From: a virus
Taxonomy: Duplodnaviria; Heunggongvirae; Uroviricota; Caudoviricetes
DNA length: 64,000 bases
Direction: 5' to 3' (one strand)
IMG/VR virus record: IMGVR_UViG_3300049830_000314
A model generated the notes under the pieces. That model made no database searches. It was not told the DNA's origin and was given only the letters and a program-made list of their open reading frames with translations. Positions 59,554 through 63,341 of this stretch are shown here, piece by piece (position 1 is the stretch's first letter; each line of letters begins with the position of its first letter). A program made the translations under genes and the position numbers.

Positions 59554-61467
59554 TTAAATCATACCCGATGAAGGGGTTGCTTTTGAAGGTTTTGTACCCA
59601 TAATAGCATTGATTAACACATCGTCATCCTTATAAATATCTTTAAATGTTTGGTCTTTGTGAATCAATGTTTTAGCCACCTGAGTAACATCAATAAGCTG
59701 TCCGGTATTCTTGTCCCTAGCAACTCTACCACCACGCTTTGGAACATTAGGTGCTGTTTGTTTCTGTTGCATAGAGAACTTATAAAGTTTCTCGCCACGA
59801 GCAAACATCGCTTGATTACCGCTCTTTATCAGGATACAATCCGTGTCAATAGCTTGGTCATCAATTTCCATGATGTCTTTTGCACCCGGAGTGGCTTTAA
59901 AGCATTCCAAGATACCAGTAGCACTCATGTGAAGAACAATACCAGTGTCCAAAACAACAAAGTTGATTTCAGAAACCTGAATATTATCTTGCTTTCGAAT
60001 ATCGTAGCTCTTAAATGCAGGGTCGAATCGGAAAATAAACTTGTCATGTTCTCCGGTGACTCTAGCACCAATCAGCACTAACACACCGTTGTCAAATTTA
60101 GCATCAATGATTCGATGGTTTGCCAATTCTGGAATTTGCAGTTGATAACATGTTCCGGTTGATGGGAAAATCGAAATATGAGCAACATTGGACAAGCTAG
60201 AAATAACACAACCCTCAAACATATGAGTGTTGTTCACAATAACATTTCCAACTTTCTTCACAGTAGGTACTGGCTTCTTACCAACTTCGACAAAGCTGAC
60301 TTCATTGATATTGCCCTGATTCAACAAATACAACCTGCCTTGATAAGACATGATTTGTTCAGCCGTGAAATTCGATGGCATTTCCACTTTAGTCAAAATC
60401 GGGAACAGTTTGACGTGTCCATTGTCAAGTCGAGCCAAAATACCCTCTCCTTGGGGAGTCTGAACAATATGCGCAACATCCTGTAAACCAACCATCACCT
60501 TATCATTTTTGTACAAGCCATTGGTTGTCATGGTGTATCCAGCGACATAATCAATAACTGGCTTTTGATAAGTGTAAAGCAAAGTGATAAGAAAGTTGTC
60601 GCTTCCAGCTTGCTTGGTAATTCGACTTCCAGCAATGATTCGACTTTCGTATGAATCTGGTGGAGCGCTTCGTACACCACTTTCAAAGACGGCTTCATAC
60701 CAGTCTCGCAATGCAGACGGAATCGTGTTAAATGGCGCACAAACAGCCGGGATTGTGACTTCTGGATTAAAGACGCTAATATTGCGCTTCATTCTTTCTA
60801 CCATTGTCAGATTTTGCTTGTAAATACCTTTAAATGGGTGGATACCAATAAACATTTGGAATGTGACAATCGCCCACGAATACCAGTCTGTGTTTTTGTT
60901 AAACACTTTGGTGTGTGGGTCGCGCACTGAATCCATAATGGCGCTGGCTGGAAAAGTTGGTGTTTGATAGCTATTTGAGTCAATGAAATAAACATTCTTG
61001 AAATTCTTGTCCACCAAGTAATTCATTTCATTGCCGTCAACCATCAAATATCCATGACTGTGAAGATATTTGTTGCCATCTTGCATTATCTTGACAAGAT
61101 TGGTAATTTGGTCTGGTGTGATTTTATGGCGGTCTTTAAACGCTTTTGGAAACAACATGCAAAGCTCATATGCGTCTTTGTATGGCATTGAAAATCCGCG
61201 CAAATGATTTGCGCTGTCAACCAGAATATCCTGCGGGACAATGATGCTAGGATGCTTAAGTTGTTGCAATTCTAGCAACTTCTTTTCAGGCGGTAGCAAT
61301 TTTGTATCTGGATAGATTTTGTGAATGACATTATTCTTAAGATAAATCAAACCCTCGCCGCCAAAGGCAGATTTGATATCTTTTGGCGTCAAGACTAGCG
61401 ACTTACCACTTGGTTTGGTTTTTAAGTCCCACGTCTGTTGTAGAGTTTTATCATCCCATTTGCTCAT
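59554..61467 (-). CDS. Ser/Thr protein kinase-like domain protein (TerY-P triad kinase candidate) with a large C-terminal extension
   Basis: LHSHGYLMVDGNEMNYLV (catalytic-loop-like) and DWYSWAIVTFQMFIGIHPF (subdomain IX-like); 637 aa. Confidence 0.5.
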   Translation of the reverse strand: MSKWDDKTLQQTWDLKTKPSGKSLVLTPKDIKSAFGGEGLIYLKNNVIHKIYPDTKLLPPEKKLLELQQLKHPSIIVPQDILVDSANHLRGFSMPYKDAYELCMLFPKAFKDRHKITPDQITNLVKIMQDGNKYLHSHGYLMVDGNEMNYLVDKNFKNVYFIDSNSYQTPTFPASAIMDSVRDPHTKVFNKNTDWYSWAIVTFQMFIGIHPFKGIYKQNLTMVERMKRNISVFNPEVTIPAVCAPFNTIPSALRDWYEAVFESGVRSAPPDSYESRIIAGSRITKQAGSDNFLITLLYTYQKPVIDYVAGYTMTTNGLYKNDKVMVGLQDVAHIVQTPQGEGILARLDNGHVKLFPILTKVEMPSNFTAEQIMSYQGRLYLLNQGNINEVSFVEVGKKPVPTVKKVGNVIVNNTHMFEGCVISSLSNVAHISIFPSTGTCYQLQIPELANHRIIDAKFDNGVLVLIGARVTGEHDKFIFRFDPAFKSYDIRKQDNIQVSEINFVVLDTGIVLHMSATGILECFKATPGAKDIMEIDDQAIDTDCILIKSGNQAMFARGEKLYKFSMQQKQTAPNVPKRGGRVARDKNTGQLIDVTQVAKTLIHKDQTFKDIYKDDDVLINAIMGTKPSKATPSSGMI

Positions 61468-62579
61468 TAATTCTCTTCTCCGAGATAGACAACACCCACA
61501 GATAGGTCATCGCTGTGAGTCCATTGTCTATCTTTGCACGTTTCTAAGAAACGTTTCATTCGTCGCTTAACAAAAGAACCCGTGAAGCTCTTAAAAGCTA
61601 GAAGCTCTCTGATAACTTCATGAGTTGGCACTGATTCTTTTGTCATTGATGTTTTGTCGTCCACTCTTTCCATAAAAGATTGGACACCATCAGACATAAC
61701 AGCAACCCACAAATATTTATCCTTACTGCCTAAGTATGTTTCAAAAGGGGCGGCAGAGCGATACTTTTGTTTTAGAGGAGCTTTATCTCCGTCAATAAGT
61801 TCAAGTGTCACTTCTTTATAGTTACCCGTCTTTTCATCAAATTTTTCTTTTCGCTCTGGTGAAAGCTGGTAGGATACATAATTTGGATATCCTTCTTTGT
61901 ATGAAACTGAATATGTTTCAATAATACCGTCGCGACGACCAAATGCTACAACTCCATCACCATAGCATGTCACCATAAACTCACCACTTTTATTGGATAT
62001 GATTGACATAAGCGTTGCGTCGAGCGCCATGGGGTCTAATTCTAGTGCCTTCGAGTTGCTTTGTGCTTCTTCAATGATTTGAGTGTAGAGGCTGCGTGAA
62101 CGTTTGGAAAATTCATCAAAATCCATTACTCCCATCGCTGGAATATAAAGTTCATGCGTTTTCACTAACACTCTCGCTCCAACATCGCTGTCTTTTGAAC
62201 CAGAACAGCCATCAGCAAGCACGATATAAGATTTAACACCATTGTTGTGATTGGCTACATAATCTTGACAAATATCATGGTCTGCACCAATTACGAAAAA
62301 GCTATCTGAATTCATGGCGTTAGGAGTCGTAACAGAATGAACCACTGTCACTGGCTTTGGGGGTGTTATTACCACTGGTGTCTTAGGTGGCGAAACAACT
62401 ACCGGAATATTTTTTACAGGCGGCTGAGTCTGATTTGATTTTGGCGGTGTTGCTGATGCCATTTTTTTAGGTGGCGGAGTAGTAGAGCGCTTATAAATCT
62501 CTGTGACTGGCACAGGGTCGAAAACCTCGGTAATGTTTCTCCAAGTTAATCTTCTCATAATGCGCTCTACCAGAATCAA
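61467..62579 (-). CDS. PP2C-family protein phosphatase-like protein with a Pro/Thr-rich N-terminal region
   Basis: VLADGCSGSKDSDVGARV and TCYGDGVVAFGRRDG resemble PPM motifs. The start overlaps the kinase stop (ATGA). Confidence 0.5.
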   Translation of the reverse strand: MILVERIMRRLTWRNITEVFDPVPVTEIYKRSTTPPPKKMASATPPKSNQTQPPVKNIPVVVSPPKTPVVITPPKPVTVVHSVTTPNAMNSDSFFVIGADHDICQDYVANHNNGVKSYIVLADGCSGSKDSDVGARVLVKTHELYIPAMGVMDFDEFSKRSRSLYTQIIEEAQSNSKALELDPMALDATLMSIISNKSGEFMVTCYGDGVVAFGRRDGIIETYSVSYKEGYPNYVSYQLSPERKEKFDEKTGNYKEVTLELIDGDKAPLKQKYRSAAPFETYLGSKDKYLWVAVMSDGVQSFMERVDDKTSMTKESVPTHEVIRELLAFKSFTGSFVKRRMKRFLETCKDRQWTHSDDLSVGVVYLGEEN

Positions 62580-62591
62580 CCTAATGTCGTC

Positions 62592-63341
62592 TTAGAAGAC
62601 GATAGGCTGACTTGCTCCACCCGTTCCAAGGGCTTGTGACTGAGCAGCGATGCTCTTAGAAACGAATTGTGCAAGTTTAGCCAATGTGTTGGCGTTTGCG
62701 TTGGCGATTTCGACATACTCTCGAATACCAGCAGCAGACTTGTATGTTCGCAAGCAGTTACCCATGTGTGGGTCGCTGATGTTCAAGCCAACAAGAATGC
62801 TAACTACAGATTCAAGTTTCTCTTCTCGAACAACGTTTTCGAGCTTGGTCTTAATGTCGCTTACACTGTATTTGGAAGCGTTGTCATCACCATCAGTCAT
62901 AACAATTAAGATACTGTTAGCTCGGAAATCGTTATTGTAAAGAGTTTCAGCGTAGTTCTGAATCGAATCAACAGCATCACAGCTTGCATCGAACAAAGCG
63001 GTGCTACCACCACCACGTCCAAGACAACCAGGATAATCTGTCAAGTTACACTGCGACAAAAGCTTGAAGCCGTGAAATTCTTGAACATCATCCGAGAACA
63101 TGGTGATTCGAATTAGTAGACTATCAGCTCGTGGCGAGTGAGAACATGCTGAGACAATTTCTTGAATAGCATTTTCCATATCGTCACGGAAGTAGCTGGT
63201 AGAACCTGAAACGTCCACCGCGATGTTGACAATAGTGTACTCTGCACTACCAAGGTCATCAAGCTTGGTTCGACTGTAGCCGTAGCTACCGCCTTGTAGA
63301 GTTACATTTTCGAGATTAGGGTTGATTTGTTTTGAGCCCAT
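62592..63341 (-). CDS. von Willebrand factor A domain protein (TerY-like)
   Basis: MIDAS DVSGST; ILIVMTDGDDN; 249 aa. Confidence 0.75.
   Translation of the reverse strand: MGSKQINPNLENVTLQGGSYGYSRTKLDDLGSAEYTIVNIAVDVSGSTSYFRDDMENAIQEIVSACSHSPRADSLLIRITMFSDDVQEFHGFKLLSQCNLTDYPGCLGRGGGSTALFDASCDAVDSIQNYAETLYNNDFRANSILIVMTDGDDNASKYSVSDIKTKLENVVREEKLESVVSILVGLNISDPHMGNCLRTYKSAAGIREYVEIANANANTLAKLAQFVSKSIAAQSQALGTGGASQPIVF

Follow-up and report, generated by a model that had tools for sequence, protein, structure and literature searches.

The genes studied here resemble two kinds of described system. The first joins a von Willebrand factor A (vWA) protein to a phosphatase and a kinase. In TerY-P, a TerY-like vWA protein is encoded with a PP2C phosphatase and with a Ser/Thr kinase that bears a zinc ribbon at its C-terminus; an OB fold replaces the zinc ribbon in a stand-alone defence version, and TerY-P-like modules work against phages on their own (PMC11090510, citing Gao et al., 2020). 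The yegL-pphC-yegI operon of Escherichia coli is of the same general kind: YegI, which passes the membrane twice, and PphC are enzymes with biochemical activity, and the phosphatase and kinase genes overlap in B and O157 strains (bioRxiv 10.1101/819920). The second kind is the NAD+ synthesis encoded by phages. NAD-jumbo phages carry clustered pncB-nadD-nadE and pncA (PMC11662467), and the NARP1-3 pathways reconstitute NAD+ with Adps/Namat, Nampt/Nmnat or PnuC/NadR (bioRxiv 10.1101/2024.02.11.579819; PMC13464706). Here we analyzed a stretch of 64,000 nucleotides from a Caudoviricetes virus (IMG/VR record IMGVR_UViG_3300049830_000314), referred to as the window, whose coordinates and protein residue numbers are used throughout. 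It carries, on the minus strand, a vWA-PP2C-kinase triad directly beside the gene of a PncA-like nicotinamidase. This linkage between PncA and the triad appears to be undescribed within the literature we searched, as the surveys of jumbo-phage and viral NAD systems that we consulted do not mention the unit, and full-text searches for nicotinamidase or isochorismatase together with vWA, PP2C and kinase returned nothing relevant.

To collect relatives we used the kinase as query. A scan of IMG/VR gave 163 contigs, many of them 200-548 kb long, and a scan of one genome per species gave 134 matches, mainly in Armatimonadota, Acidobacteriota (Pyrinomonadaceae, Blastocatellia), Myxococcota, Desulfobacterales and Thiotrichales. 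Linkage was counted by tblastn with the four window proteins over the non-redundant loci fetched in this way. All four genes lay on one strand in 64 of 75 viral loci, 60 of which had the canonical order PncA-vWA-PP2C-kinase; among 69 bacterial loci the corresponding numbers were 37 and 35, a count that is lowered because many of the bacterial contigs are short. The linkage is reciprocal: a PncA-anchored search found a relative in 213 viral contigs, and in the best 79 loci, which were the ones analyzed, the vWA gene was present within 10 kb of PncA in 74, PP2C in 73 and the kinase in 72. PncA is also the best-conserved member, with a median identity to the window protein of 53% in viruses and 58% in bacteria, compared with 35-38% for the kinase. 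These results establish PncA-vWA-PP2C-kinase as a conserved four-gene unit, of which PncA is a member and not a mere neighbor. The sequence-only reading of this DNA had proposed a connection to NAD, and this is now the strongest result of the analysis, because PncA is the best-conserved member of the unit.

The unit is more compact in bacteria (median span 4.3 kb) than in phages (6.1 kb). The kinase and PP2C genes are usually adjacent, and PP2C is absent from several bacterial PncA-vWA-kinase loci. Between the four phage genes there are miscellaneous insertions (NUMOD3 endonuclease, M24 peptidase, FtsH-like, RNA ligase). We considered whether the phage insertions are mere homing elements and partly rejected this, as the recurrent ones are PncB, NadE and NadD. 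Average-linkage clustering of 145 kinases placed those of Armatimonadota and Acidobacteriota in one coherent block, while the viral sequences were more diverse; the lineage of the window branches separately, with about 40% identity to all other sequences, and has a kinase tail, a PP2C extension and a guanylate kinase of its own. Several contigs assigned to metagenome-assembled genomes (MAGs) of other phyla cluster among the viral kinases. Three of these, a 546-kb contig binned as Bacteriovoracaceae (L141), one from a Thermoplasmatales MAG (L144) and one from a Promethearchaeota MAG (L156), carry expanded clusters in the phage style, for example vWA-PncB-NadE-PP2C-NadD-kinase, and their kinases group with the viral ones; they may be contigs of huge phages binned into cellular MAGs. 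As a separate observation, 19 loci, all bacterial and none from a phage, encode directly 3' of the kinase a 740-residue protein with an N-terminal S-adenosylmethionine methyltransferase domain (for example, L006 11731-13953). Possibly it belongs to the bacterial version as an additional component, with nicotinate as a candidate substrate.

The genes that accompany the unit belong to NAD+ salvage. We clustered 2,967 open reading frames (ORFs) from 169 loci and checked the representatives with Pfam. Beyond the core four, the recurrent families were nicotinate phosphoribosyltransferase (PncB), glutamine-dependent NAD synthase (NadE) and a NadD-like adenylyltransferase, followed by NrtR (Nudix plus winged helix), NADAR, ADP-ribosylglycohydrolase (ARH) and RtcB. 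In phages, NAD genes and genes of the triad are intermingled on one strand, as in the orders PncA-vWA-PncB-NadE-PP2C-NadD-kinase (L038), a similar array followed by NrtR (L039), PncA-vWA-PP2C-NadE-PncB and, further along, the kinase (L081), and vWA-PP2C-NadE-kinase-PncB-NrtR (L083). In bacteria the genes are often preceded by NrtR; examples include NrtR-PncA-vWA-PP2C-kinase in Pyrinomonadaceae and PncA-vWA-PP2C-kinase-PncB in Capsulimonadaceae, and in some Thiotrichales loci the kinase adjoins NrtR with no PncA-vWA nearby. NrtR is a classical regulator of NAD salvage. Further NAD genes were found in the flanks of 44 of the 81 viral loci and 35 of the 83 bacterial ones; as a baseline, which we infer and did not compute as a control, a stretch of about 20 kb from a genome of 200-500 kb would capture a given single-copy gene by chance in far less than 10% of cases. 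PncB was present in 28 of the 79 PncA-anchored loci. A check of genomic neighbors in related phages had been suggested with the sequence-only reading: the triad is indeed conserved there, but its context is NAD+ salvage and not Ter or restriction genes.

A PncA-vWA pair also occurs without kinase or PP2C on a Variovorax megaplasmid, again beside NAD-related genes. This locus comes from a cultured organism (L170, Variovorax sp. WDL1 plasmid 2, 648675-667436, a "plasmid" of 816 kb), and its neighbors are a NAD kinase, a gene with a nucleoside 2-deoxyribosyltransferase domain, two Nudix genes, a macro domain, AlkB, RNase HII and an S49 peptidase.

The window has five ORFs arranged in tandem on the minus strand, coding for the PncA-like protein, the vWA protein, the PP2C-like protein, the kinase-like protein and a guanylate kinase. 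The order of the three triad ORFs had been recognized from the letters, and their coordinates were confirmed exactly. Overlapping stop and start codons had been described as well; they are real at the PP2C/kinase junction (a 1-nt overlap, TAATG), but the other junctions are gaps of 9 nt (PncA/vWA), 12 nt (vWA/PP2C) and 4 nt (kinase/guanylate kinase). No convincing internal terminator was seen within the five-gene run. The triad genes are genuine and not chance ORFs, as judged by comparison with other genomes, because each has hundreds of homologs. PncA had been taken for a flanking gene at 63351-63980. It does adjoin the triad, but the gene (63351-64000, minus strand) is cut at its 5' side by the end of the window, because its frame is still open at base 63998. 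The full-length gene is found on an identical 4.8-kb contig (L089:127-921) and codes for 264 amino acids. In a 94%-identical relative (L088) the gene located 5' of PncA is oriented oppositely, so PncA is the first gene of the operon. That divergent region (L088 3111-5333), just past the end of the window, has genes for a subtilisin-like S8 peptidase containing an intein (Intein_splicing and LAGLIDADG), a protein resembling S26 signal peptidases, a trypsin-like protease and DnaJ.

Pfam gave no match to the truncated PncA-like ORF of the window. A profile built from 31 relatives matched eight PDB sequences; seven were nicotinamidases, and the best was yeast Pnc1 (E 1.8e-15). The catalytic triad D9/K154/C204, aligned to that of Pnc1, and the Asp-His-His metal ligands D52/H54/H121, located in the motifs TLDSHH and WPPHC, are 99-100% conserved in 87 relatives. 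The Asp-Lys-Cys triad and the Asp-His-His metal site are common to the PncA-like protein and to the canonical nicotinamidases yeast Pnc1 and Mycobacterium tuberculosis PncA, its best matches in PDB, and so are the motifs WPxHC and KG...YSA. We therefore predict that the protein hydrolyzes nicotinamide to nicotinate, with the adjacency of PncB as indirect support. Unlike the canonical nicotinamidases, it is about 264 residues long, has a family-specific insert and extra invariant residues (H61, P62, W65, Y103, R112, Y113, E161 and H162), and its gene is always paired with a vWA gene. The PncA-like gene of Phage G (PMC12484599) falls outside this PncA family at E<=1e-5.

The vWA protein (62592-63341, minus strand, 249 residues) is a candidate member of the YegL/TerY type. 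Its match to Pfam VWA just exceeds the cut-off (E 4.1e-5, 24.3 bits against 23.8), its relatives carry the JGI name YegL, and the family profile matched no PDB sequence. The metal-ion-dependent adhesion site (MIDAS) that had been read from the sequence is complete: DVSGST is present, and D43, S47, T114 and D150 are invariant in 89 relatives. A Ser-rich C-terminal motif (F226, S228, S230, S235, S244) is also conserved. Its gene comes immediately after PncA in 47 of 64 viral loci and in 44 of 45 bacterial ones, and because it is nearly always encoded in this position the vWA protein is the likely partner of PncA. One could go further and see in it a metallochaperone or assembly factor that acts through its MIDAS on the metal-dependent nicotinamidase, with the kinase and PP2C regulating something else, such as host proteins during takeover, and linked to the pair by operon history alone. 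The Variovorax pair, which persists without either enzyme, speaks for this explanation, and the loci lacking PP2C and the apparently larger size of the vWA family (at least 1004 homologs, against 338 matches for the kinase) are also in its favor. We nevertheless consider it improbable: the kinase accompanies PncA-vWA in 72 of the 79 PncA-anchored viral loci, the neighborhoods contain no AAA+/MoxR partner, which is typical of vWA chaperone systems, and the precedent of YegL-PphC-YegI ties the vWA protein to a kinase/phosphatase pair.

The PP2C-like ORF (61467-62579, minus strand, 370 residues) contains a PP2C_2 catalytic domain at residues ~92-370 (61467-62306; PF13672, E 5.5e-15), in which the acidic residues D106, D123, D208, D297, D357 and D358, the metal ligands, are conserved in 101 relatives. 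The first ~90 residues (62307-62579) form a low-complexity extension rich in Pro, Thr and Val that is unconserved in the family alignment. The start of this ORF is ambiguous, either TTG at 62579 or an ATG seven codons later, which is the one picked by the gene caller on the identical contig. The kinase-like ORF (59554-61467, minus strand, 637 residues) begins with a YegI-like Hanks-type Ser/Thr kinase domain at residues 1-272 (60652-61467). Its Pfam Pkinase match is below the cut-off (E 4.4e-6, 26.7 bits against 31.7), but G36, G37, K50, H136, D144, N149 and D163 are invariant in 51 homologs and E66 nearly so, and these positions supply the glycine loop, the lysine for ATP (K50), the catalytic residues D144 and N149, and D163, which binds Mg. 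The AlphaFold2 model had a mean pLDDT (predicted local distance difference test) of 84, above 90 across most of the kinase domain, and its best PDB matches in Foldseek were eukaryotic-type protein kinases. By its residues, this is an active-looking Hanks-type kinase. The long C-terminal extension that had been noticed is mainly a beta-propeller domain (residues ~288-568, 59764-60606), followed by a tail (residues 569-637, 59554-59763) that occurs only in this phage lineage and whose pLDDT is below 50 over most of 570-637. Homologs are mostly about 560 residues long, equivalent to kinase plus propeller, and cover 84-87% of the query; we found 338 at E<=0.001 in 90% clusters and 1369 representatives at E<=1e-30 in 50% clusters. 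Thus all three domain assignments made from the sequence stand after profile searches. Searches of PADLOC, PHROG and NCBIfam left the triad and PncA without informative names.

The match to TerY-P that had been claimed for the triad holds only in part. The window triad shares with TerY-P the encoding of a MIDAS vWA protein, a PP2C phosphatase and a Ser/Thr kinase in one operon, and with the E. coli operon (L171) the order vWA-PP2C-kinase as well as the overlap of the phosphatase and kinase genes. In hhalign comparisons the kinase profile aligned with YegI over 254 columns, restricted to the kinase domain (probability 98%, E 3e-13), the vWA with YegL (78%, E 1.7e-5) and the PP2C with PphC (76%, E 2.4e-5); the G-loop GGEG and the motifs IDxDSxQ and HPYxG are common to the YegI-type operon proteins and the triad, as is the Ser-rich motif that follows the vWA domain to YegL and the window vWA. 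On this distant homology, the triad is predicted to work like, and to descend from, systems of the YegL/TerY-P kind. However, it is outside the described TerY-P systems. No TerY-P model of PADLOC-DB matched at E<=0.01 or even at E<=10, the sole PADLOC matches being a generic PP2C model (E 0.016) and mad6 (E 1e-4), and tblastn of the vWA against 72,556 plasmids found no TerY at E<=0.01. A propeller, neither zinc ribbon nor OB fold, forms the tail of the kinase, and the unit is tied to NAD salvage and not to Ter, McrBC/CoCoNuT or DNA-processing genes. Compared with E. coli, the window kinase is soluble and propeller-bearing while YegI has a different C-terminal half, and the E. coli operon lacks nicotinamidase or NAD genes.

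These comparisons also bear on the idea that the triad is a stand-alone TerY-P-like module for defense or superinfection exclusion, similar to that of Gao et al. (2020), and that PncA merely lies beside it. Gene order, the distant YegL/PphC/YegI homology and the anti-phage activity of TerY-P-like modules (PMC11090510) speak for it. Against it stand the failure to match TerY-P and the propeller, and also the linkage to PncA, which is reciprocal and nearly universal, the presence of NAD biosynthesis genes between the triad genes, and the fact that nuclease, McrBC and Ter genes were not recurrent in over 160 neighborhoods. Huge phages do carry defense-type systems, which counts in favor of such a module, but with all the evidence considered we regard it as very unlikely.

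We propose instead that the unit is a reversible Ser/Thr phosphorylation switch coupled to the nicotinamidase step of Preiss-Handler NAD+ salvage, a reading to which we would assign a probability of roughly 0.6. Its basis is that the domains are identified, their catalytic residues are intact, the linkage holds in both directions and NAD genes stand among those of the triad; together these findings suggest that NAD+ salvage is under the control of protein phosphorylation. The nicotinamidase would convert nicotinamide, a product of NAD+ cleavage by NADases, ADP-ribosyltransferases or sirtuins, to nicotinate, the entry substrate for PncB and subsequently NadD and NadE. The vWA protein would serve as partner or adaptor of PncA; the kinase and PP2C would form the reversible switch that sets the activity or assembly of the nicotinamidase step; and the propeller would be a docking or sensing domain. 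In a phage, the unit would probably sustain or rebuild the NAD+ pool of the infected cell against consumption by the phage or cleavage by host NADases, with PncB, NadD and NadE supplied by the host or encoded outside the window.

Several observations weigh against this proposal. About half of the loci have no further NAD gene in their flanks, and tblastn with those families found no PncB, NadE, NadD or NrtR in the 64 kb of the window. The Pfam Isochorismatase scores are sub-threshold (16.9-25.2 bits in four members, with a cut-off of 27), and the PncA-like family has an insert of about 50 residues that contains invariant positions of its own; because of these two features the substrate could differ from free nicotinamide. 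The neighbors RtcB, ARH, NADAR, PARP and macro point equally to ADP-ribose or RNA-repair conflict systems. We had also considered the Ser-rich tail of the vWA protein as a kinase-specific phosphorylation site, an idea now weakened: the motif is not specific evidence for a phosphosite because it is also present in YegL and in the Variovorax pair, which has no adjacent kinase.

Some of these same points would be explained if the unit were a NAD or ADP-ribose conflict system rather than salvage of the housekeeping type, with the triad as a sensor of infection. The PncA-like protein would then act on a substrate that contains nicotinamide or on some other amide (nicotinamide mononucleotide, nicotinamide riboside, NAD or a signaling nucleotide), or would remove the nicotinamide that inhibits ADP-ribosyltransferases and NADases as a product. 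The insert and the extra invariant residues, the low Pfam score, and the recurrence of ARH, NADAR, macro, PARP, RtcB and Nudix genes agree with this explanation, and the bacterial hosts belong to lineages rich in conflict systems. Nevertheless, the metal site and catalytic triad that are conserved are those specific to nicotinamidases, seven of the eight PDB matches are nicotinamidases, the genes most commonly added to the unit (PncB, NadE and NadD) need nicotinate as their input, and NrtR belongs to classical salvage. For these reasons we judge it unlikely. Among described systems we also considered the ARG-centered anti-ADP-ribosylation systems (PMC9503650) for the ARH, NrtR and vWA neighbors, and rejected them, as they have no kinase, PP2C or PncA.

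A more specific form of the phosphorylation switch can be put forward only tentatively, as its chances seem to us clearly lower than even. In it, the triad would sense the cleavage of NAD+ by host immunity, or the load of ADP-ribosylation, and in response would switch on reconstitution through PncA and then PncB, NadD and NadE. The anti-defense role that the sequence-only reading had offered for the triad is an inference. Depletion of NAD+ is a major theme of bacterial immunity, and phage pathways that reconstitute NAD+ keep being discovered, those described so far being bare sets of enzymes; if the triad were such a sensor, the unit would be a regulated, fourth type of phage NAD+ counter-defense and the first case of Ser/Thr phosphorylation control of NAD salvage in bacteria and phages, common to hundreds of huge phages and to Armatimonadota, Acidobacteriota, Myxococcota and other bacteria. 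The proposed switch, if true, would mean that NAD+ salvage is controlled post-translationally by a signal at the step from nicotinamide to nicotinate, in a system found in 163 viral contigs via the kinase, 213 via PncA and over 130 representatives of bacterial species. The triads of the YegL/PphC/YegI type (TerY-P-like), which are poorly understood, would also gain a first concrete partner in metabolism, and with it a direct experimental way to learn what they sense and phosphorylate.

The fifth gene of the run, at 58863-59549 on the minus strand, is unambiguously a guanylate kinase (Guanylate_kin, E 7e-44; TIGR03263, E 4e-61). It adjoins the triad, as had been noticed, and is probably co-transcribed with the kinase, from whose stop codon it is separated by 4 nt. 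However, it was absent from all 169 loci searched, the 94%-identical relative (L088) being the only kinase-fetched locus to have it, and it was found in only one of the 79 PncA-fetched loci, so its absence from related loci rules it out as a member of the conserved unit. A strong, GC-rich hairpin of 12 bp (58641-58668) is located 3' of this gene. A perfect 12/12 sigma-70 consensus (TTGACA-18-TATAAT) lies at 58847-58876 on the minus strand, across the last guanylate kinase codons; downstream of it come the hairpin and then a tRNA-like gene at 58396-58470.

The window probably comes from a huge phage: it carries 25 tRNA genes, 11 of the 20 large ORFs tested match PHROG families, and the only GenBank phage records with relatives of the kinase and PncA are three curated uncultured genomes (462-595 kb) and one 6.5-kb fecal phage contig. 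No structural hallmark gene was seen in the window. Megablast of the region against 50,697 phage records gave no match, and tblastn matched only four uncultured records; therefore there is no cultured phage model. The 25 tRNA genes are all on the minus strand, at 6564-6811, 16453-16870, 20839-21342, 45511-45775, 53225-53388 and 56249-58470, and they form arrays of the same amino-acid identity (three Phe, five Leu, four Glu plus one odd call, three Tyr, two His and five Pro), an arrangement in tandem that is unusual among phage tRNA clusters. A PHROG "tRNA-His guanylyltransferase" (Thg1-like) gene is located at 48788-49855. A lone tRNA at 34774-34848 has the anticodon TCA ("SeC" in ARAGORN) and is a possible opal suppressor; the ORFs of the studied region read normally with code 11. 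The tmRNA that ARAGORN called at 57721-58106 overlaps two tRNA-Pro genes on the same strand (57867-57943 and 57949-58026) and is probably an artifact of the tRNA array. Between two tRNA-Pro genes, at 56335-56886, there is a Cys-rich ORF of 183 residues that, by eye only, looks like an HNH-type homing endonuclease (CxxC pairs, '...GHTQQNVVACCRRCN...').

Finally, we compared the unit with the phage NAD+ systems described so far. Like the NAD-jumbo phages and NARP1-3, it would represent NAD+ synthesis encoded by a phage, and the likely benefit would be the same, that is, sustaining NAD+ under NAD-depleting immunity. The descriptions of those systems include no kinase, phosphatase or vWA component; in the case of the NAD-jumbo phages, the words kinase, phosphatase and vWA are absent from the paper (PMC11662467). 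NARP1-3 do not use the deamidated PncA route. In contrast to the NAD-jumbo clusters, the window holds only the PncA step of the Preiss-Handler route, whereas relatives of the unit carry PncB, NadD and NadE. What appears new is a triad of the YegL/TerY-P type in which the kinase has a novel architecture and the partner, likewise novel, is metabolic.

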